Source: a virus (lineage: Duplodnaviria > Heunggongvirae > Uroviricota > Caudoviricetes). Taken from it: a DNA stretch of 42,729 bases. The notes below the pieces were generated by a model. It did no database searches. It had not been told where the DNA came from and saw only the letters and a list, made by a program, of their open reading frames with translations. A program made the position numbers and the translations under genes. The stretch lies in the IMG/VR virus record IMGVR_UViG_2541047951_000003; one strand, 5' to 3'. This document shows positions 1-21,885 of this stretch, in pieces (positions within the stretch are counted from its first letter, which is position 1; each line of letters begins with the position of its first letter).

Positions 1-1143
1 CTATGCTGTTTTGATATCTACGATAATCCAGTCTTTACCACGATCATCATTGTATCGGTCGGTCATTTTTCTGGATTTATGGCCTAACAACTTTTGCGTA
101 TCCAGACCCTGTTCCCGATATAACCGTTCTGACAGAGATCGCTGCTCATGAAATGTGGGCGCAGTTCCTTGCTCCCATTTTATGCCACATTTTTCCCGGG
201 CCTTTTTAAAAGCCGTTGTCAGAGTATTCGCAGAAACCTGGTCTCCTCTGTTTGCTTGAGAGGTAGTGTGACGGTAATGGACCAGATATTTACTAACAAC
301 AGCATCCCTGCACTGAGATATAACTTCACGAAGGGTAATATTCAGAGCATCGCATTTCAGGTTAAGCGGAATAGCAAGTTTTGAACCGGTTTTTTCCTGA
401 GTAATGTGCAACATGTCGTCCCATATATCAGAGAATTTCAAATTGCAGATATCGCCTAAACGTTGTCCAGTAACAAGAGCAAGTAGCATGCCGCATTTTA
501 AATAGGGCTGCCGTCTGCTTACGCTGTCAAATATTGCCTGCCATTCGGGCAGTGACAATCTTTGGCGGTTTACTCGATTTCGTGGTTGTTTTGTTGCCTG
601 CGCTGGGTTAAATCCTGGCGGAACATGTCCTGCGTGTTGTGCTTCTTTGAAGACGTCGATCAACACCATTCTCACGACTTGCGCCATCCTGTTATGACCT
701 TCAGCCTTTACAGCATCAATTATTTCGGCAATATCAAGTGCGGTAATATCCTTGAGGTGTTGCATTCCACAATGCTCACGGAAAAGACGAATGGGTTTGC
801 CTTTTTGCCGATAGGAGTTGGGTCTTAGTTCATTATGTTGCAGCCTGTCCTCTTGGATAGAAATATATTTATCAAGCCATTCTGTCACCGTAATGTCTGA
901 GCGCCTGCCTTTCATTCTTTCCAGACGCTCATTGACGCTTAATATTTGTCTGGTACGTTGTTCAGCAATAATGGTATTTGCTTCAGTAGCAACTTGTTTT
1001 GCTTCATTCTCATCAGTTCCTAAGCTATGAAAACGACCGGATAGTGGATGTTTGTATTGCCAATATACCTTTCCGGTTCGCTTATCTAATTTGCAATATA
1101 AATTGGGTATAGAGATTTTGTGAGATCGGGGTCTAGCAGCCAT
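1..1143 (-). CDS. int: Tyrosine site-specific integrase (lambda Int family); stop codon at window positions 1-3
   Basis: 380-aa ORF with C-terminal catalytic-domain signature (HxLRH-like 'TFHEQRSLSERLY', 'LLGHKS...RY'); first gene after xis as in lambda; 11-nt overlap with xis. Confidence 0.9.
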   Translation of the reverse strand: MAARPRSHKISIPNLYCKLDKRTGKVYWQYKHPLSGRFHSLGTDENEAKQVATEANTIIAEQRTRQILSVNERLERMKGRRSDITVTEWLDKYISIQEDRLQHNELRPNSYRQKGKPIRLFREHCGMQHLKDITALDIAEIIDAVKAEGHNRMAQVVRMVLIDVFKEAQHAGHVPPGFNPAQATKQPRNRVNRQRLSLPEWQAIFDSVSRRQPYLKCGMLLALVTGQRLGDICNLKFSDIWDDMLHITQEKTGSKLAIPLNLKCDALNITLREVISQCRDAVVSKYLVHYRHTTSQANRGDQVSANTLTTAFKKAREKCGIKWEQGTAPTFHEQRSLSERLYREQGLDTQKLLGHKSRKMTDRYNDDRGKDWIIVDIKTA

Positions 1144-4992: not shown

Positions 4993-5125
4993 TTTTTGGG
5001 ACTCCTGGCTGATTAAGTATGTCGATAAGGCGTTTCCATCCGTCACGTAATTTACGGGTGATTCGTTCAAGTAAAGATTCGGAAGGGCAGCCAGCAACAG
5101 GCCACCCTGCAATGGCATATTGCAT
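4961..5125 (-). CDS. cIII: CIII (FtsH inhibitor stabilising CII), 54 aa
   Basis: Manual translation gives [54 protein letters not shown], matching lambda CIII; overlaps kil start as in lambda. Confidence 0.8.
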   Translation of the reverse strand: MQYAIAGWPVAGCPSESLLERITRKLRDGWKRLIDILNQPGVPKNGSNNYGYPD

Positions 5126-5197
5126 GGTGTGCTCCTTATTTATACATAACGAAAAACGCCTCGAGTGAAGCGTAATTGGTATGCGGTAACGCCGCGC

Positions 5198-5748: not shown

Positions 5749-5949
5749 TCAGGCAGCTTTGTTGTTCTGTTTACCAAGTTCTCTGGCAATCATTGCCGTC
5801 GTTCGTATTGCCCATTTATCGACATATTTCCCATCTTCCATTACAGGAAACATTTCTTCAGGCTTAACCATGCATTCCGATTGCAGCTTGCATCCATTGC
5901 ATCGTTTGAATTGTCCACACCATTGATTTGTATCAATAGTCGTAGTCAT
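5749..5949 (-). CDS. ral: Ral (restriction alleviation protein), 66 aa
   Basis: MTTTIDTNQWCGQFKRCNGCKLQSECMVKPEEMFPVMEDGKYVDKWAIRTTAMIARELGKQNNKAA matches lambda Ral. Confidence 0.85.
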   Translation of the reverse strand: MTTTIDTNQWCGQFKRCNGCKLQSECMVKPEEMFPVMEDGKYVDKWAIRTTAMIARELGKQNNKAA

Positions 5950-6019
5950 ACGGATAGTCCTGGTATTGTTCCATCACATCTTGAGGATGCTCTTCGAACT
6001 CTTCAAATTCTTCTTCCAT
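5933..6019 (-). CDS. Small acidic ORF, 28 aa (lambda orf28-like): MEEEFEEFEEHPQDVMEQYQDYPYDYDY
   Basis: Manual translation; overlaps ral start; same position as lambda orf28. Confidence 0.45.
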   Translation of the reverse strand: MEEEFEEFEEHPQDVMEQYQDYPYDYDY

Positions 6020-6162
6020 ATATCACCTTAAATAGTGGATTGCGGTAGTAAAGATTGTGCCTGTCTTTTAACCACATCAGGCTCGGTGGTTCTCGTGTAC
6101 CCCTACAACGAGAAATCGGATAAACTCTATTCACCCCTACAGAGAGCAAAAGAGAAACGCCG

Positions 6163-6744
6163 ATGAACAACTCATGGTGGCAGGAACTAATGCATTTTTT
6201 CCTGCAAGGAATGACACTTAAACAGTTGATTCATATGCTAATCATCCTGATCATATTGATTATTGTTATGCCGGTAAGCGTAAAAGAATGGATAAACCTG
6301 CATAATCCAGAAATCCTTCCTCATTACTGGATGTATTACATCCTGTTGTTTTGCGTTAGCTATGTGCTTAACGGCGTTGTTAATTCCGCTTATCACGCTG
6401 TGACTGAAAGAATTGAGGTATTCGCTGCTCAGAAGCGCAAATCTAAAGAAGAAAAATATGTGCAAGATTTGTTTGATTCGTTAACTCTTGGAGAAAGAGC
6501 GTATTTGGCATTCGCTGTAGCCGCTAATAACCAGCTACAAACGGAAAAGGGCGCTCATGAATCAATTTCATTGCTCAAAAAAGGACTCCTCGTTCGAAGG
6601 CCTCCTGCTGTTGGATATCCTGATACCGACCGTTTCGTTATCCCTGAAAGCTATAGACATGAGTGCTACATTAGGTTTGCCGGGAAGGCAGACAGCCTTA
6701 TGGATGAACTTATCGCTCAGGATAAGCATGGCAAAAACAAGTAA
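6163..6744 (+). CDS. sieB: Superinfection exclusion protein B (SieB)
   Basis: 193 aa with hydrophobic N-terminal membrane segments (LIHMLIILIILIIVMPV...), matches lambda SieB; opposite strand to N as in lambda. Confidence 0.85.
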   Translation: MNNSWWQELMHFFLQGMTLKQLIHMLIILIILIIVMPVSVKEWINLHNPEILPHYWMYYILLFCVSYVLNGVVNSAYHAVTERIEVFAAQKRKSKEEKYVQDLFDSLTLGERAYLAFAVAANNQLQTEKGAHESISLLKKGLLVRRPPAVGYPDTDRFVIPESYRHECYIRFAGKADSLMDELIAQDKHGKNK

Positions 6745-15075: not shown

Positions 15076-16158
15076 TTAGAACTGATAAACCAGACCTACA
15101 GCGACGATGTCGTCGGTATCAATACCAGCTGTTTTGGTAAACTTACTATCGTCAATTAAGTTGATTTTGTAATCAACAAAAGTGGACATGTTTTTATTAA
15201 AGTAGTAAGTAGCACCGACATCGACATACTTGACTAAGTCTCGGTCACCATGAACACCAAGGTCTTTACCTTTTGACTGAAGGTAAGCAACAGATGGACG
15301 CAGACCGAAGTCAAACTGATATTGTGCTACTGCTTCAAAGTTTTGTGCTTTGTTTGCAATATGGTTATTACCAAAAACGGTCATATTCTGAGTTTCAGAA
15401 TATGTGGTAGCCAGATAGATATTGTTCGCATCATATTTCAGGCCTGCAGCCCATACTTCCGCATTTTTGCCGGAGGCATTGAATTTGCTCTTACCATAGG
15501 CGACCTGACCGTCAGTGCGATCTGATTTAGCATAGGTTGCACCCACGCCGAATCCTTCATACTCATAAGTAGTGGAGAAACCGAAACCATCACCATTGGC
15601 TTCAGTTACGTCAGTGCGGTCATTTTTACCCTGATACTGAGCAGCAAAGTTCAGGCCATCGACCAGACCAAAGAAGTCGTTGTTACGATAAGTTGCAACA
15701 CCAGTAGTGCGACCAGTCATGAACACATCTGTTTGGGTCCAGGTATCACCACCGAATTCTGGCAGAACGTCAGTCCACGCACCGATGTCGTATGCTACAC
15801 CGTAGTTACGGCCGTAATCGATTGAGCCGTAATCACCAAATTTCAGGCCTGCAAATGCAAGACGGGTTTTGTCTTTGGAAGAACCTTGAGATTCAGCACG
15901 GTTGCCTTTGAATTCATATTCCCACTGACCGAAACCAGTCAGTTGATCGTTGATTTGGGTTTCACCTTTGAAGCCAAGACGGGCATAAGTAGTATCACCA
16001 TCATCTGCATCATTAGAGGAGAAGTAGTGCTTGGCATTAACTTTCCCGTATAGATCCAGCTTGTTACTGTCTTTATTATAAATTTCAGCTGCCTGAGCAG
16101 ACATCGCCATCAGTACTGATGCAGCTACAGCAGAAATTGCCACTGTTAATTTTTTCAT
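15076..16158 (-). CDS. nmpC: Outer-membrane general porin (NmpC/OmpD/OmpC family), intact
   Basis: Signal peptide [23 protein letters not shown]; porin hallmarks incl. C-terminal ...VAVGLVYQF; located between Q and the lysis genes on the opposite strand, as nmpC is in DLP12. Confidence 0.9.
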
Positions 16159-16584
16159 TGTACGCCCTTTTTTTGAACTATTATTAAAAAATGATGTCAC
16201 TGCGCGATAAATATTCATCTAATCAATGTGATTATTTCAAGATGTAAGTTTTAGTTTCTCATTTAATTTGTGAAGTAGATCTCTATTTTTATCTGAACCT
16301 TTTCTATCTAATCCTATTCATGGCTCTTGTCTGAACAAAAATAAATCTATTAGCTAATTTATATTAATGGCACTTATTTATAAGTGCTCTATAATTCTTT
16401 AGCTTAATTTAAACAAACTAAAAATAACATTGGAAATTATTAACTGGTTATTTGTTGAAGTTTTCTTATGCATTTGTGGTGGTGTTTTGAACACTCGGTG
16501 GCATTCTCACAAATATCATTTAGTAGTTTACGTACGTAAAAAATTGGTTATGCTGTTAAGAGTGGTTACTTCGTCACACAGCTT

Positions 16585-16962: not shown

Positions 16963-17459
16963 TGCCTCCATCATTACGAAAAGCCGTTGCTGCTGCTATT
17001 GGTGGCGGAGCAATTGCTATAGCATCAGTGTTAATCACTGGCCCAAGTGGTAACGATGGTCTGGAAGGTGTCAGCTACATACCATACAAAGATATTGTTG
17101 GTGTATGGACTGTATGTCACGGGCATACAGGAAAAGACATCATGCTCGGTAAAACGTATACCAAAGCAGAATGCAAAGCCCTCCTGAATAAAGACCTTGC
17201 CACGGTCGCCAGACAAATTAACCCGTACATCAAAGTCGATATACCGGAAACAATGCGCGGCGCTCTTTACTCATTCGTTTACAACGTGGGTGCTGGCAAT
17301 TTCAGAACATCGACGCTTCTTCGCAAAATAAACCAGGGCGATATCAAAGGCGCATGTGATCAGCTACGTCGCTGGACATATGCTGGCGGTAAGCAATGGA
17401 AAGGTCTCATGACTCGTCGTGAGATTGAGCGTGAAATCTGTTTGTGGGGTCAGCAATGA
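16962..17459 (+). CDS. R: SAR endolysin (lysozyme R21 type)
   Basis: 165 aa; N-terminal Gly/Ala-rich SAR segment ([20 protein letters not shown]) followed by lysozyme domain; matches R21/RrrD. Confidence 0.9.
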
Positions 17460-17917
17460 ACAGAGTAACCGCGATTATCTCCGCTCTGGTTATCTGCATC
17501 ATCGTCTGCCTGTCATGGGCTGTTAATCATTACCGTGATAACGCCATTACCTACAAAGCCCAGCGCGACAAAAATGCCAGAGAACTGACGCTGGCGAACG
17601 CGGTAATTACTGACATACAGATGCGTCAGCGTGATGTTGCTGCGCTCGATGCAAAATACACGAAGGAGTTAGCTGATGCGAAAGCTGAAAATGATGCTCT
17701 GCGTGATGATGTTGCCGCTGGTCGTCGTCGGTTGCACATCAAAGCAGTCTGTCAGTCAGTGCGTGAAGCCACCACCGCCTCCGGCGTGGATAATGCAGCC
17801 TCCCCCCGACTGGCAGACACCGCTGAACGGGATTATTTCACCCTCAGAGAGAGGCTGATCACTATGCAAAAACAACTGGAAGGAACCCAGAAGTATATTA
17901 ATGAGCAGTGCAGATAG
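17456..17917 (+). CDS. Rz: Rz i-spanin
   Basis: [43 protein letters not shown]... matches lambda Rz; ATGA overlap with R. Confidence 0.85.
17676..17858 (+). CDS. Rz1: Rz1 o-spanin lipoprotein (embedded in Rz, +1 frame)
   Basis: 60 aa, lipobox VVGC, Pro-rich; matches lambda Rz1. Confidence 0.75.
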
Positions 17918-17948: not shown

Positions 17949-18242
17949 TTATTGTGAGCAATACACACGCGCTTCCAGCGGAGTATAAATGCCTAAAGTA
18001 ATAAAACCGAGCAATCCATTTACGAATGTTTGCTGGGTTTCTGTTTTAACAACATTTTCTGCACCACCACAAATTTTTGCTGCATCGACAGTTTTCTTCT
18101 GCCCAATTCCCGAAACGAAGAAATGATGGGTGATGGTTTCCTTTGGTGTTACTGCTGTAGGTTTGTTTCCAACAGTAAACGTCTGTTGAGCACATCCTGT
18201 AATAAGCATTGCCAGAGCGGCAGAAAACAACATTTTTTTCAT
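17949..18242 (-). CDS. bor: Bor lipoprotein (serum-resistance lysogenic-conversion protein)
   Basis: MKKMLFSAALAMLITGCAQQTF... 97 aa from ATG 18242, matches lambda Bor/BorD. Confidence 0.85.
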   Translation of the reverse strand: MKKMLFSAALAMLITGCAQQTFTVGNKPTAVTPKETITHHFFVSGIGQKKTVDAAKICGGAENVVKTETQQTFVNGLLGFITLGIYTPLEARVYCSQ

Positions 18243-18408: not shown

Positions 18409-18413
18409 ATTAC
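18409..18413. repeat. IS2 target-site duplication (ATTAC), left copy
   Basis: 5-bp ATTAC directly flanks both IS2 ends (18409-18413 and 19745-19749). Confidence 0.8.
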
Positions 18414-18424
18414 TGGATTTGCCC

Positions 18425-19330
18425 CTATATTTCCAGACACCTGTTATCACTTAACCCATTACTGGCTTGCTGCCGCAGATATTCCCGTGGCGAGCGATAA
18501 CCCAGTGCACTATGCGGATGCCATTCGTTATAATGCTCGAACGCCTCTGCAAGGTTCTTTGCTGCCGTTAACCCGTCTGGTTTGGGCATGACACTGATGT
18601 AGTCACGCTTTATCGTTTTCACGAAGCTCTCTGCTATGCCGTTACTCTCCGGACTCCGCACCGCCGTGCTCTTCGGTTCAAGCCCCAACATCCGGGCAAA
18701 CTGCCGTGTTTCATTAGCCCGGTAGCATGAACCATTATCCGTCAGCCACTCTACTGGAGACGCCGGAAGCTCGTTGCCGAAGCGGCGTTCCACCGCTCCC
18801 AGCATGACGTCCTGTACTGTTTCACTGTTGAAGCCGCCCGTAGTGACCGCCCAGTGCAGTGCCTCACGGTCACAGCAGTCCAGCGCGAACGTGACTCGCA
18901 GTTTTTCTCCGTTATCACAGCGGAACTCGAACCCGTCAGAGCACCATCGCTGATTACTTTCTTTCACAGCCACTCTGCCTGTATGTGCCCGTTTCGATGG
19001 CGGTACAGCAGGTTTTCGCTCAAGCAACAGCGCATTCTGGCGCATGATCCGGTAAACACGTTTGGCATTGATCGCAGGCATACCATCAAGTTCTGCCTGT
19101 CTGCGAAGCAGCGCCCATACCCGACGATAACCATACGTGGGCAGCTCTCCGATAACATGGTGTATACGGAGAAGCACATCCGTATCATCAGTGTGACGAC
19201 TGCGGCGGCCATCCATCCAGTCATCGGTTCGTCTGAGAATGACGTGCAACTGCGCACGCGACACCCGGAGACAACGGCTGACTAAGCTTACTCCCCATCC
19301 CCGGGCAATAAGGGCGCGTGCGCTATCCAC
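18425..19330 (-). CDS. insD: IS2 transposase OrfB (InsD, DDE integrase core)
   Basis: 301 aa, matches IS2 InsD; overlaps insC in -1 frame (programmed frameshift fusion typical of IS3 family). Confidence 0.9.
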
Positions 19331-19653
19331 TTTTTTGCCCGTCCATATTCAACGGCTTCTTTGAGGAGTTCATTTTCCATCGTTTTCTTGCCGAGCAGGC
19401 GCTGGAGTTCTTTAATCTGCTTCATGGCGGCAGCAAGTTCAGAGGCAGGAACAACCTGTTCTCCGGCGGCGACAGCAGTAAGACTTCCTTCCTGGTATTG
19501 CTTACGCCAGAGAAATAACTGACTGGCTGCCACACCGTGTTGCCGGGCAACGAGGGAGACCGTCATCCCTGGTTCAAAGCTCTGCTGAACAATTGCGATC
19601 TTTTCCTGTGTGGTACGCCGTCTGCGTTTCTCCGGTCCTAAGACATCAATCAT
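19288..19653 (-). CDS. insC: IS2 OrfA (InsC, HTH)
   Basis: [52 protein letters not shown]... matches IS2 InsC (121 aa). Confidence 0.9.
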
Positions 19654-19744
19654 CTGCTCTCCAATGACTAGTCTAAAAACTAGTATTAAGACTATCACTT
19701 AAATAAGTGATATTGGTTGTCTGGAGATTCAGGGGGCCAGTCTA

Positions 19745-19749
19745 ATTAC
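19745..19749. repeat. IS2 target-site duplication (ATTAC), right copy
   Basis: Identical 5-mer to 18409-18413 immediately outside the IS2 terminus. Confidence 0.8.
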
Positions 19750-20058
19750 CCTTTTAGCTGCGCTGTATCGTCGCCGTATTCCCGCATTAACCATGACCGT
19801 AGCCCGACGGGGAATTCCTTCTGCGTGAGTGTGCGGGAATAATTAAAAACGATGCACACCGGGTTTTTACCGCGTTAATGATTCGCGGGTTTATCCCGGT
19901 GCGATGGTGGAAGAAACAGGAAGCTGTATTACAGAAAGTGCTACTACTGTATCCCGATGCGATGTATGTAATGTGAGTCAGATAATGGCACAGGATGTGG
20001 TGATGTGGCAGTCTGGAACACAGGATATATTGTCAGAATAAGACCCGTAGGAATAAAA

Positions 20059-20385
20059 ATGAAAAGACGCCTTTTACTACTTTTTCTGTTATCTGTCCTG
20101 GCAGTGGGATGCTCGCAGCAAAAAGCTGATGAGCCCCGGCAATTAGTGACGGTGTATCCACGATATCCGGAATATGCTGCAGCAAATTATATCAAGGGGC
20201 TGGTTGAGGTTAAGTTCGATATTGGTGCTGATGGGACTGTGACACGGATCGTTTTTCTCCGCTCAGAGCCTCATAATTTGTTTCGTGATGAAGTGGTGAA
20301 GGCCATGGCGAAATGGCGATTTGAAAAGAATCGCCCCTGTCAGGGAGTGAAGAGACAATTTATCTTTACGCCGTCACGTCCTTGA
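20059..20385 (+). CDS. Lipoprotein with TonB-C-terminal-like domain (hypothetical)
   Basis: Signal peptide with lipobox (MKRRLLLLFLLSVLAVGC); mature part shows 'P-x-YP-x-A...G-x-V-x-V-x-F-x-I...DG-x-V' pattern reminiscent of TonB_C fold. Confidence 0.55.
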   Translation: MKRRLLLLFLLSVLAVGCSQQKADEPRQLVTVYPRYPEYAAANYIKGLVEVKFDIGADGTVTRIVFLRSEPHNLFRDEVVKAMAKWRFEKNRPCQGVKRQFIFTPSRP

Positions 20386-20507
20386 TGCTTCCAGGTAGAG
20401 AGGGGCTGGAAGCAGGAGAAAAATGAAAGAGCCAGCGGTTATATTTTTGTCATGGCTGACGAGGAATGATGGAAGAAGGCGTTGTATGCCACACAACGCC
20501 TCACTGT

Positions 20508-20687
20508 TCATTTCTTCTTTTTCTCTGGTGGAACCCGATGAATAAGAGTTGCACTGGTTTCCGATGAGATGGCGATATACTCGGGCAAAGTATGCTGGCA
20601 GTTTTCCAACTGGTCAAAAATACCTGCTCTCGTCTGTTGCAATGCCTGCAGCATGCGGCGGCAATGCGCCTTGCTTTTACTAACCAT
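20508..20687 (-). CDS. Hypothetical small basic protein, about 59 aa (start uncertain)
   Basis: Part of track ORF 20508-20861; internal ATG chosen to avoid overlap with upstream secreted-protein ORF. Confidence 0.3.
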   Translation of the reverse strand: MVSKSKAHCRRMLQALQQTRAGIFDQLENCQHTLPEYIAISSETSATLIHRVPPEKKKK

Positions 20688-20748
20688 CTTTCCTTCCTCT
20701 ATCAGTCGCTGCGTGAACTCATCATGGAATACCAGGTAAATGCGGATG

Positions 20749-21000
20749 TTATCGGTTTTGGCTACGCAGCATAGTACAAAACGGACAGGTGCATCCCGGG
20801 ACGGGGGAGGCGTCACATGTCCCTGTGATGGTTGTTCCGGGTAATGTACTGTGTGGGGCATAAAAATGTCCGATAATTTTACTTTCTACCGCAGTTAGTT
20901 GATTCGTTGGTCCTGGTAGCACATTGGGCGAGGATTTAAATGCCAGGCAACTGAAGGATGATGTCGCAAGGGAGATAGCGAGAATATTTCTGATTTTCAT
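20749..21000 (-). CDS. Hypothetical secreted Cys-rich small protein, 83 aa
   Basis: ATG at 21000; signal peptide MKIRNILAISLATSSFSCLA; five Cys in the C-terminal third. Confidence 0.45.
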   Translation of the reverse strand: MKIRNILAISLATSSFSCLAFKSSPNVLPGPTNQLTAVESKIIGHFYAPHSTLPGTTITGTCDASPVPGCTCPFCTMLRSQNR

Positions 21001-21148
21001 TTGATGATGCCTCTGTGTGAAATGACGGTAAACGACGCACTTGTGCCGGCACATAATAGCAAGCACCATAATAGATCAGATTCGATTCTTGCTGTAAGTG
21101 ATAATTATTCTCGTTTTCGGGTCCTTTCCGTCGATCCAACAGGTTACG

Positions 21149-21160
21149 GGGCGGCGACCT
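21149..21160 (+). other. cosN cohesive-end sequence GGGCGGCGACCT (12-nt overhang site)
   Basis: Exact lambda cohesive-end 12-mer followed by CGCGGTTTTTCACTATTTATGAAAATTTT, about 180 bp upstream of nu1. Confidence 0.8.
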
Positions 21161-21336
21161 CGCGGTTTTTCACTATTTATGAAAATTTTTCAGGGAAAAT
21201 CGTGTCGGTACTTCTCGAATATAACTTTTTGTTTTTTTTAATATTGCATCCGTAAAGGTCCGACATGAAAGTGTCCGAAAATGCCTTTTTCTGGCGTTTT
21301 CATGTCGGGCCTTGTATTTGATAATGGGTTGTTTTC

Positions 21337-21885
21337 ATGAAGGTTAATAAAAAGAGGCTTGCCGAAATTTTCAACGTGGACCCGCGGACGATTGAACGCT
21401 GGCAGTCTCAGGGACTCCCTTGCGCCTCCAAAGGTAGTAAGGGCATTGAATCTGTATTTGATACTGCCATGGCAATTCAGTGGTATGCGCAGAGGGAAAC
21501 TGATATCGAAAACGAAAAGCTCCGCAAAGAACTGGCCGATTTGCGTGCGGCAGCGGAGTCAGATTTACAACCCGGCACCATTGACTATGAACGCTACCGG
21601 CTCACAAAAGCGCAGGCAGATGCGCAGGAACTGAAAAATGCCCGTGAAGACGGAGTAGTGCTGGAAACTGAACTGTTTACCTTCATTCTGCAACGTGTGG
21701 CACAGGAGATTTCGGGGATACTTGTGCGTGTGCCGTTGACATTACAGCGTAAATATCCGGACATTTCACCATCACACCTTGATGTGGTGAAAACTGAAAT
21801 CGCGAAAGCCTCCAATGTTGCAGCTAAGGCCGGTGAAAACGTGGGCGGGTGGATCGATGATTTCAGACGCGCAGAAGGCAGCTAA
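21337..21885 (+). CDS. nu1: Terminase small subunit (Nu1-like)
   Basis: 182 aa; [28 protein letters not shown]... parallels lambda Nu1 (winged-HTH N-terminus, 'IENEKLRKE', '[29 protein letters not shown]'). Confidence 0.9.

Follow-up and report, generated by a model that had tools for sequence, protein, structure and literature searches.

Two exported-protein genes as probable cargo between bor and cos in a phage-21-type lambdoid prophage: a TonB-domain lipoprotein and a cysteine-rich small protein

The DNA examined here, IMG/VR virus record IMGVR_UViG_2541047951_000003 (42,729 nucleotides; 'the window' in what follows), is a lambdoid prophage with the layout integrase, porin, lysis genes, bor, cos, and head and tail genes. 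This report deals with the interval between the IS2 copy that follows bor and the cos site, where two genes face each other (table 1): a rightward gene for a 108-residue lipoprotein with a TonB C-terminal domain (hereafter the TonB_C lipoprotein), and a leftward gene for an 83-residue, cysteine-rich secreted protein. Both are confirmed as genuine genes by the sequence comparisons described below. A first-pass annotation had listed three open reading frames (ORFs) in this interval; all three are found where it had placed them, and their neighbourhood is made of bor, IS2 and cos as it had described.

Table 1. Features of the interval and of its surroundings in the window.
Feature	Position	Strand	Remarks
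TonB_C lipoprotein gene, 108 residues	20059-20385	+	Pfam TonB_C, TIGR01352, PDB alignment, ratio of non-synonymous to synonymous differences (pN/pS), conserved lipobox
83-residue secreted protein gene	20749-21000	-	homologue family, ratio of non-synonymous to synonymous rates (dN/dS), invariant Cys tail
59-residue ORF, doubtful coding status	20508-20687	-	near-identical or frame-broken relatives only
12-bp stem-loop between the convergent genes	20476-20502		likely bidirectional terminator-like hairpin; U-tracts imperfect on both strands
Fur-box-like candidate operator TGATAATTATTCTCG	21099-21113		12/14 match to the 7-1-7 core TGATAATnATTATCA
Integrase gene	1-1143	-	
Porin_1 gene, 380 residues, OmpD/NmpC-like	15076-16218	-	upstream of lysis cassette
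Rz/Rz1 spanin pair, complete	17444-17917 and 17676-17858		ORF list and phage 21 record
bor	17949-18242	-	
IS2, complete, 1331 bp	18414-19744	-	transposase ORFs in ORF list
IS2 target duplication ATTAC, 5 bp	18409-18413 and 19745-19749		
cosQ GGGTCCT	21119-21125	+	annotated in phage 21 record
cosN cohesive-end sequence GGGCGGCGACCT	21149-21160	+	read from sequence
nu1	starts 21337		

The product of the rightward gene begins with MKRRLLLLFLLSVLAVG followed by Cys-Ser, that is with a canonical lipobox (LAVG-C19) having Ser, and not Asp, at position +2, and is laid out as a lipoprotein signal peptide (residues 1-19), a linker of approximately 10 residues and a TonB C-terminal domain (residues approx. 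24-103). It is predicted to be a lipoprotein, probably sorted to the outer membrane. The domain is recognized by Pfam TonB_C (PF03544; E 7e-13, 49.2 bits with a cut-off of 24.6) and by TIGR01352 of NCBIfam (47.4 bits, cut-off 27.1), and its alignment with the solved C-terminal domain of E. coli TonB (residues 151-231, approximately 41% identity, E 1e-14) is gapless, so that the earlier description of a lipoprotein with a TonB C-terminal-like domain holds. The phage 21 record and RefSeq already label the product as 'TonB C-terminal domain protein' or 'TonB family protein'. Alleles with 72% (Stx1a-type phages, Lys8385Vzw) and 41% identity (a Klebsiella phage) have both kept the domain and the lipobox, which reads LVMG-C-T and LLLG-C-S in the homologues, and the pN/pS value of 0.25 obtained with the 72%-identical allele indicates purifying selection. 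Thus, the gene is a selected one rather than a 'TonB fragment'.

Neither an N-terminal transmembrane anchor nor a proline-rich spacer is present, and the score obtained with the full-length TonB equivalog models of NCBIfam is 69 bits versus cut-offs of 265-448. With no ExbB/ExbD-coupled anchor and no spacer to span the periplasm, the protein cannot transduce energy. The TonB boxes pair with strand beta-3 in TonB's C-terminal domain by beta-strand addition, and the irreversible adsorption of phage T1 is among the processes that need TonB (PMC11658791). From the anatomy of the lipoprotein we infer that its place would be the inner face of the outer membrane, at which the TonB boxes emerge from the transporters, and that it may bind the boxes of TonB-dependent transporters by beta-strand pairing; as a decoy, it would compete with host TonB and reduce the entry, by TonB-dependent routes, of phages, colicins and siderophores. 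On these grounds it is plausible that the protein interferes with TonB-dependent uptake, while the specific assignment of the protein as a decoy or competitor for TonB boxes is possible but doubtful. Two considerations weigh against it. The residues corresponding to Q160 and R166 of E. coli TonB, which we take to be implicated in the contact with the TonB box, are both Tyr in the lipoprotein (alignment with TonB 152-239). Furthermore, the tip of the J protein is identical to that of phage 21 and 55% identical to that of lambda, and a role in self-exclusion through the phage's own receptor is at most conceivable. A phage TonB-like lipoprotein was looked for in the literature and nothing was found.

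The position of the gene has a bearing on both its expression and its function. In three phage lineages (phage 21, Lys8385Vzw/Stx1a-type phages and the Klebsiella phage) it lies 3' of the lysis cassette on the late-gene strand, and in the Stx1a-type phages and the Klebsiella phage it stands beside ylcI-like genes. A consensus promoter and terminator scan and a looser scan of our own gave no convincing promoter for either gene of the interval, and no promoter-like site or Fur box was found in the 314 bp between IS2 and the start codon of the lipoprotein gene. With no recognizable promoter of its own and a place on the late-gene strand, the lipoprotein is probably made mainly from the late transcript, and its gene may be a late-transcribed one instead of a classical lysogenic-conversion gene. 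The insA end of IS2 points to the gene across the same 314 bp and could alter transcription into it.

The best PHROG match of the lipoprotein (PHROG 1267, E 5e-43) bears the label 'Rz-like spanin', which, along with the late-strand position of the gene behind the lysis cassette in the same three lineages and the lack of a promoter of its own, would suit a lysis or late accessory, for example an outer-membrane or peptidoglycan tether acting with the spanins, and not a TonB competitor. This assignment is nevertheless very unlikely, given that the prophage already has a complete Rz/Rz1 pair, that the lipoprotein has a globular TonB_C domain and not the short, proline-rich features of an o-spanin, and that the stretch from the lysis genes to cos is a hot spot where cargo inserts in general, bor, ylcI and DUF3950 genes being examples. 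The TonB_C gene is found approximately 2.1 kb 3' of the Rz/Rz1 pair in the window and approximately 0.8 kb in phage 21, with bor (here also IS2) in between; because this upstream pair is complete, the spanin label of PHROG 1267 is judged to be an artefact, probably an annotation by neighbourhood.

The 83-residue product of the leftward gene starts with a predicted signal peptide (MKIRNILAISLATSSFSCLA, cleavage before Phe-Lys), and the mature part of approximately 63 residues contains four invariant cysteines in a tail that reads G-T-C62-x7-C70-x-C72-x-x-C75-T-M-L-R. A sequence search yielded homologues of the same length and 55-77% identity in Citrobacter, Klebsiella, Buttiauxella and in Salmonella enterica salamae, indica, arizonae and diarizonae. 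Approximately 20 further clusters of 79-85 residues, including Klebsiella/Enterobacter and Serratia members, came from a profile search among 1.8 billion representatives, and the family is thus present in at least seven enterobacterial genera. The tail common to the family is G-T-C-x7-C-x-C-x-x-C-x-x-L-R, with the four cysteines invariant. Across 22 diverse members, A20, F21, C62, G69, C70, C72 and C75 do not vary, and L78 and R79 are conserved at 90% or more. The signal peptides have a common pattern, MK(I)R..., a hydrophobic core and (A/C)-L/M-A before the Phe, with mostly Ala at position -3, of the type expected for a Sec-exported product processed by signal peptidase I. The central segment, E..I...FYS.H, is helix-prone, a short helix being predicted at residues 34-47.

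Comparisons across genera gave values of 0.47-0.85 for pS, which is saturated, and of 0.11-0.30 for pN, leading to an omega of approximately 0.1-0.2. Together with the signal-peptide pattern and the homologues, this value substantiates the Cys-rich secreted protein of the first-pass annotation. The start of the gene is set at the ATG at 21000, since a 106-residue extension of the frame to position 21069 gains a stop codon in a 94%-identical variant.

Existing databases are of little help with the family. The named members are all 'hypothetical protein', save one with the automatic UniRef label 'Lipoprotein', and the conserved lipobox cysteine expected of a lipoprotein is lacking, Cys18 being replaced with Ala or another residue in most of the distant members. 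No relative could be credited in Pfam (none for 22 of the 22 members), NCBIfam, PHROG or PADLOC; CsgA of NCBIfam was matched by two of the 22 members only, with a weak E value of 2e-4 that was treated as chance. A profile search of the PDB found no relative and Foldseek gave no meaningful match. RefSeq PGAP and the curated phage 21 record omit the gene, and other records annotate overlapping wrong frames in its place. The profile search also brought up large low-complexity proteins (P0063, 627 residues; P0070, 398 residues; P0065), in which the motif P-G-C-x-C-x-x-C-x-x-L-R of the family is repeated four to five times, either by chance or as a common Cys-knuckle module.

The genomic contexts of the family, and the operator-like sequences found there, are the main source of information on what the protein may do. 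In TA464-type E. coli prophages the gene abuts cos and is followed by a DUF3950 gene in place of the TonB_C gene. In Salmonella salamae it is found between a gene for a PPC-domain protein and bor, in an island with an omptin, a NEL effector and a SPATE autotransporter. The Citrobacter homologue is divergent from a fecI-fecR-receptor operon, that of the K. pneumoniae chromosome lies between genes for PyrC and HemB paralogues and a ZnuA-type ABC transporter, and that of Serratia is divergent from an SBP_bac_5 importer.

These loci were scanned with a ATGTTATAATATAACAT-like palindrome, which we take to be the enterobacterial Zur consensus. The palindrome agrees with the candidate sites listed in Additional file 5 of Haas et al. 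2009 (PMC2770081). In six non-phage loci of five genera (Buttiauxella, with two species, Citrobacter, Salmonella, Klebsiella and Serratia) the best match within the 6.6-12 kb of each locus, with 14-17 of 19 positions, falls no more than 120 bp upstream of the 83-residue gene or its operon, or, in Salmonella, of the preceding PPC gene (chance P approximately 0.01 each). The Salmonella arizonae and diarizonae loci have the same Zur-like and Fur-like boxes as salamae at matching positions. No Zur box is found at the phage copies of the gene, where the best matches are 10-12/19 (10/19 for the copy in the window). The Zur-regulated islands of gamma-proteobacteria comprise COG0523, PyrC, HemB and DksA paralogues and ZnuABC-type transporters (Haas et al. 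2009, PMC2770081). By taking into account the Zur-like boxes and the contexts of this zinc-island type, the family looks like an unrecognized member of the zinc-starvation response.

Two further observations were made at these loci. On the Klebsiella plasmid CP024459.1 (locus L005, approx. 5830-6252) the gene still has beside it what is left of a cos site, GGTCACCGCCCCATAAC, in degenerate form, and a Fur box that has decayed, and it lies 0.7 kb from genes for a Fur-family regulator and a COG0523 (cobW) protein; this copy looks like one of phage origin that came to rest next to a cluster of the zinc regulon. A 13/14 Fur-box palindrome, TGATAAAAATTATCA, is found downstream of the stop codon of the 83-residue gene in Salmonella salamae, diarizonae and arizonae (L008, 6339-6353; L020, 5341-5355; L021, 5604-5618, respectively). 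In salamae, for which genes were called, it is placed after this stop codon and before the bor homologue begins, which suggests that bor may be iron-regulated there.

The phage copy in the window has a different candidate operator. The palindrome TGATAATTATTCTCG is located 6 bp from cosQ, at a distance of 86-100 bp upstream of the ATG, and represents the only Fur match of at least 12/14 in the 42.7-kb window (0.23 expected), and the overlapping 19-mers at 21094-21118 score 14/19 and 15/19. At the homologous position a perfect palindrome, TGATAATAATTATCA, is found in TA464-type prophages, in DLP12 of E. coli K-12 (upstream of ylcI) and in an O157 prophage (upstream of a ynfO-like gene). These are the sites reported as those of nohA and nohB, both strong Fur clusters, of which the 'nohB' site (25.3 bits) is the third strongest predicted one in K-12, and the 'nohA' site (22.3 bits) was confirmed by gel shift and positive in a Fur-titration assay (Chen et al. 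2007, PMC2189734). In the loci inspected here (L016, approx. 2010-2025; L017; L013, 5866-5880), the nohA/nohB box of the literature lies across cos from nu1/noh and directly upstream of a leftward cargo gene; the genes behind it are ylcI, a ynfO-like gene or the 83-residue gene. Beyond the nohA/nohB assignment, nothing was found in the literature on Fur control of ylcI or ynfO. As cos separates the box from nu1 and a leftward cargo gene is only 90-160 bp away, the leftward gene appears to be the more likely target as compared with the nu1 homologue, and the gene under the nohA/nohB box may be mis-assigned in the literature.

A different reading of the same palindrome is that it has nothing to do with the 83-residue gene, being part of the packaging site or of a rightward nu1/noh promoter, in which case the phage copy of the gene would be constitutive or silent. 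It is consistent with the closeness of the palindrome to cosQ, with its assignment to nohA/nohB in the literature, with the absence of a convincing leftward -35/-10 pair for the 83-residue gene in the promoter scans, and with the fact that the box is part of a cos-proximal block kept in approximately 78% of E. coli genomes (4253 of 5426) whatever the gene to the left. In contrast, every prophage case examined (the 83-residue gene, ylcI, ynfO-like) has the box upstream of a leftward gene, at a distance of 86-160 bp, whereas nu1/noh is at least 225 bp from the box, with cos between. Moreover, nu1 is normally transcribed from the late promoter, as it is in lambda. On balance, an unrelated palindrome is rather unlikely.

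On these bases a metal-responsive role can be outlined for the 83-residue protein. The phage copies would have lost the Zur box and have the Fur box abutting cosQ upstream instead, so that the gene would be derepressed under metal limitation. The protein would then act in the periplasm, in the binding or handling of a metal, most likely zinc, or in some other adaptation of the envelope to metal starvation, with its cysteines either binding the metal or forming two disulfides. For the copy in the window this regulation is what we infer from the position of the box. That the product is a periplasmic protein induced by metal starvation, with a role in metal handling, is a tentative proposal, and the odds are somewhat against it. 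Several points tell against it. The window Fur box, with 12/14 matches, is weaker than the experimentally bound sites, and the promoter scans gave the leftward gene no convincing -35/-10 pair. The retention of the box with cos irrespective of the neighbouring gene implies that it may serve nu1/noh or packaging. The AlphaFold2 models of the protein are of low confidence (predicted local distance difference test values of 47.5 and 61), and it is in a model of this low confidence (47-61) that the CxxC is placed at the start of a predicted helix. Finally, a Cys4 metal site is unusual in the oxidizing periplasm, where the cysteines may simply form two disulfides.

The architecture of the protein, in which a signal peptide is followed by a variable 'pro' region and then by a Cys-rich C-terminus that is invariant, from which a tail of approximately 22 residues would be released to act on competitors or on host cells, also recalls that of a secreted pre-pro-peptide toxin or signal, such as the heat-stable enterotoxins or guanylin mimics. 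The gene would then be a virulence moron beside bor/iss, which it adjoins in E. coli, and its islands in Salmonella salamae, arizonae and diarizonae also contain bor, with the omptin, NEL effector and SPATE genes mentioned above in salamae. However, no match to enterotoxins or to any other credited Pfam or NCBIfam family is found, and the C-x7-C-x-C-xx-C spacing is unlike that of STa and guanylin. Furthermore, in non-pathogenic Buttiauxella and in Serratia plymuthica the family occupies housekeeping loci, with Zur-like boxes and beside metal transporters, so that a toxin appears highly improbable.

The third ORF, in its 59-residue form or extended to 117 residues (20508-20861, minus strand), did not stand as the basic gene that the first-pass annotation had made of it, being frameshifted in one variant, lacking diverged homologues and absent beside the homologues of the 83-residue gene. 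The 117-residue form is an artefact: its N-terminal half is an alternative frame of the 83-residue gene and contains a stop codon in one variant. Two candidate diverged homologues of this form (P0043 and P0044) were discarded, since they come from short contigs full of indels, in which 1.2 kb contain 51-60 gap openings. The 59-residue form is frameshifted by a 1-bp insertion near codon 6 in the 97.7%-identical variant L004, and is open in the 94%-identical variant with three synonymous and three non-synonymous changes, a pattern indistinguishable from neutrality. Its relatives in the database are either near-identical copies or frame-broken variants of 82-169 residues, and it is absent at every locus with an 83-residue homologue outside the module of the window. 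It matches no Pfam or NCBIfam family, its PHROG match (4843) consists of self-like entries only, and it has no similarity to the DUF3950 and YlcI proteins. Most likely, neither form is a conserved gene, and the 59-residue ORF probably corresponds to the 3' portion of the 83-residue gene's transcript, or is a young ORF specific to the module. A strong Shine-Dalgarno sequence (GAGGAAGGAAAG-ATG) and the open frame in one diverged variant speak on the other side, and the ORF could be translated.

Between the two genes lies a hairpin that starts 6 nt past the stop codon of the 59-residue ORF and approximately 90 nt past that of the TonB_C gene. The 91-nt stretch 20440-20530, which contains it, has a minimum free energy of -23.3 kcal/mol (z = -3.1, with one of 200 shuffles folding as well). 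A 146-bp block comprising the hairpin and the 3' half of the 59-residue ORF (20463-20608) shows no substitutions with respect to the 94% variant, whereas its flanks differ by 3-10%; recombination mosaicism or constraint on the RNA could explain it. From this block, the stable hairpin right after the stop codon, the Shine-Dalgarno sequence and the frame kept open in the 94% variant, it may be argued that 20386-20748 encodes a functional product, either the basic protein of 59 residues or an RNA that derives from the transcript of the 83-residue gene, at its 3' end, and stops at the hairpin. Such a product is unlikely, owing to the frameshift in L004, the lack of diverged homologues, the absence of the ORF from other loci of the 83-residue gene, the three substitutions that the same block has in L004, and the lack of a known RNA family for 20386-20748 both in the Rfam gathering-level scan of the window and in a sensitive scan of 19700-21340.

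Three plus-strand ORFs annotated in or near this region were also rejected on the basis of variants of 94-98% identity. In that at 20592-20774 (WP_000881610.1, CPT_21_75; a 60-residue product with self-like PHROG entries only), nine of ten substitutions are non-synonymous and two create stop codons; that at 20423-20545 (CPT_21_74) has lost its start codon by deletion in one variant and is interrupted by a stop codon in a second one; and that at 19904-20041 (CPT_21_72) has a stop codon in one variant. All three are probably spurious gene calls.

As to the setting, positions 19745-21148 match the right end of phage 21 (OL657228.1) with 100% identity, and the window continues into phage 21 cos/nu1 sequences; cosQ and cosN represent the right and left ends of the virion DNA, and the phage 21 record stops at window position 21148. 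IS2 is the sole local difference between the window and phage 21, its boundaries being defined by two collinear BLAST blocks with a 5-bp overlap. It lies between bor and the cargo genes, and is not present in phage 21 or in other near-identical phages. The 765-bp core 20386-21150 is found at full length, almost always with at least 99% identity, in 1222 of 5426 complete E. coli genomes, typically with bor/iss adjoining. Elsewhere in the window, the porin region is without the tRNA-Asn and tRNA-Thr genes that the phage 21 record has there, the window as a whole being devoid of tRNA genes, and a lambda cIII thermoregulator RNA element (Rfam RF01804, 88.5 bits; 5080-5138, minus strand) is the sole gathering-level Rfam match.

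Taken together, these data lead to reading the interval, with a probability of roughly 60%, as a cargo ('moron') segment of a phage-21-type lambdoid prophage made of two independent genes for exported proteins that converge on a common hairpin. Each gene is found without the other in different prophages, and thus both behave as mobile cargo. The distribution of both is mosaic; the 83-residue gene has a candidate operator and the hairpin, and the TonB_C gene, with no promoter, fits the moron pattern in part. The proposal of the first-pass annotation that these are lysogenic-conversion morons is therefore retained for the two exported products and their mosaic, cargo-like distribution, and abandoned for the third ORF, and it is weakened for the TonB_C gene by the lack of a promoter of its own and the location on the late strand. 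A more ambitious synthesis would be that lambdoid phages have a two-gene cargo for metal-limited, host-like conditions, in which a lipid-anchored decoy for TonB boxes acts on all TonB-dependent gates and a Zur/Fur-controlled periplasmic Cys4 mini-protein, for zinc binding or metal acquisition, has been rewired from zinc to iron control through the Fur box at cosQ; we consider this decidedly unlikely as a whole.

The locus is not new as a sequence, phage 21 DNA being already in GenBank with the TonB_C gene annotated. It does comprise a member of a conserved and mostly unannotated family of small proteins with a coherent metal-regulatory signature, and an uncharacterized TonB-domain lipoprotein. 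The module is found beside bor/iss in about 22% of complete E. coli genomes, and in the classic phage 21. A TonB decoy, if real, would bear on how the host takes up iron, on its sensitivity to colicins and on superinfection. The 83-residue protein defines an orphan family, one that largely escapes standard annotation, and its operators suggest a place in the responses to zinc and iron starvation, which are relevant in infection (nutritional immunity). The public annotations of 20400-21100 are mostly wrong frames: in RefSeq and in the curated phage 21 record, the plus-strand ORFs called within 20400-20800 fail the conservation tests, and the conserved minus-strand gene is omitted.

Comparison with known systems helps to place both proteins. 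The chromosomal homologues of the 83-residue protein resemble the components of the zinc-starvation islands of Haas et al. in their location, which is within these clusters or adjacent to them and behind ATGTTATnnnATAACAT-type boxes, but the family is not among the described members of the Zur-regulated islands, and the copy in the window has no Zur box. The two cargo genes share with the bor/iss, ylcI/ynfO and DUF3950 morons the slot between the lysis genes and cos and the mosaic distribution. The likeness to the ylcI/ynfO-type morons extends to the leftward orientation of the 83-residue gene beside cos, and to the common Fur box adjacent to cosQ. However, the 83-residue protein is unrelated in sequence to the Bor, YlcI and DUF3950 proteins.

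With respect to E. coli TonB (1U07, 2GSK, 2GRX; residues approx. 150-239), the lipoprotein has retained the YP motif as well as the beta-3 region, the part involved in pairing with TonB boxes, and differs in having a lipoprotein signal peptide in place of the membrane anchor and spacer, and Tyr in place of Q160 and R166. Periplasmic C-terminal fragments of TonB are reportedly dominant-negative for transport through FhuA and FecA, as Howard et al. are said to have found in 2001 (J Bacteriol). Such laboratory fragments, which also place the domain in the periplasm without the energy-coupling N-terminus, are a functional precedent for the decoy idea, although they are soluble and over-expressed, whereas the phage domain is natural, 41% identical and predicted to be lipid-anchored. 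Small phage lipoproteins acting on the same uptake machinery are also on record. Cor of phi80, N15 and T1 is a small outer-membrane lipoprotein that inactivates FhuA. Llp of T5 is a lipoprotein that likewise inactivates FhuA, leading to superinfection exclusion (bioRxiv 10.64898/2026.03.26.714494). No sequence relation of the cargo proteins to Llp, Cor or defence families was found in the PHROG and PADLOC scans, the only PHROG matches being 1267 and 34172. The TonB_C lipoprotein is like Llp and Cor, which act at the inner leaflet of the outer membrane, in being a small lipoprotein encoded by a phage. Llp and Cor hit a single receptor, whereas from a TonB_C decoy one would expect an action on the TonB box common to many transporters and, if this were true, competition for TonB boxes would represent a new and general means by which a phage shuts the TonB-dependent gates.

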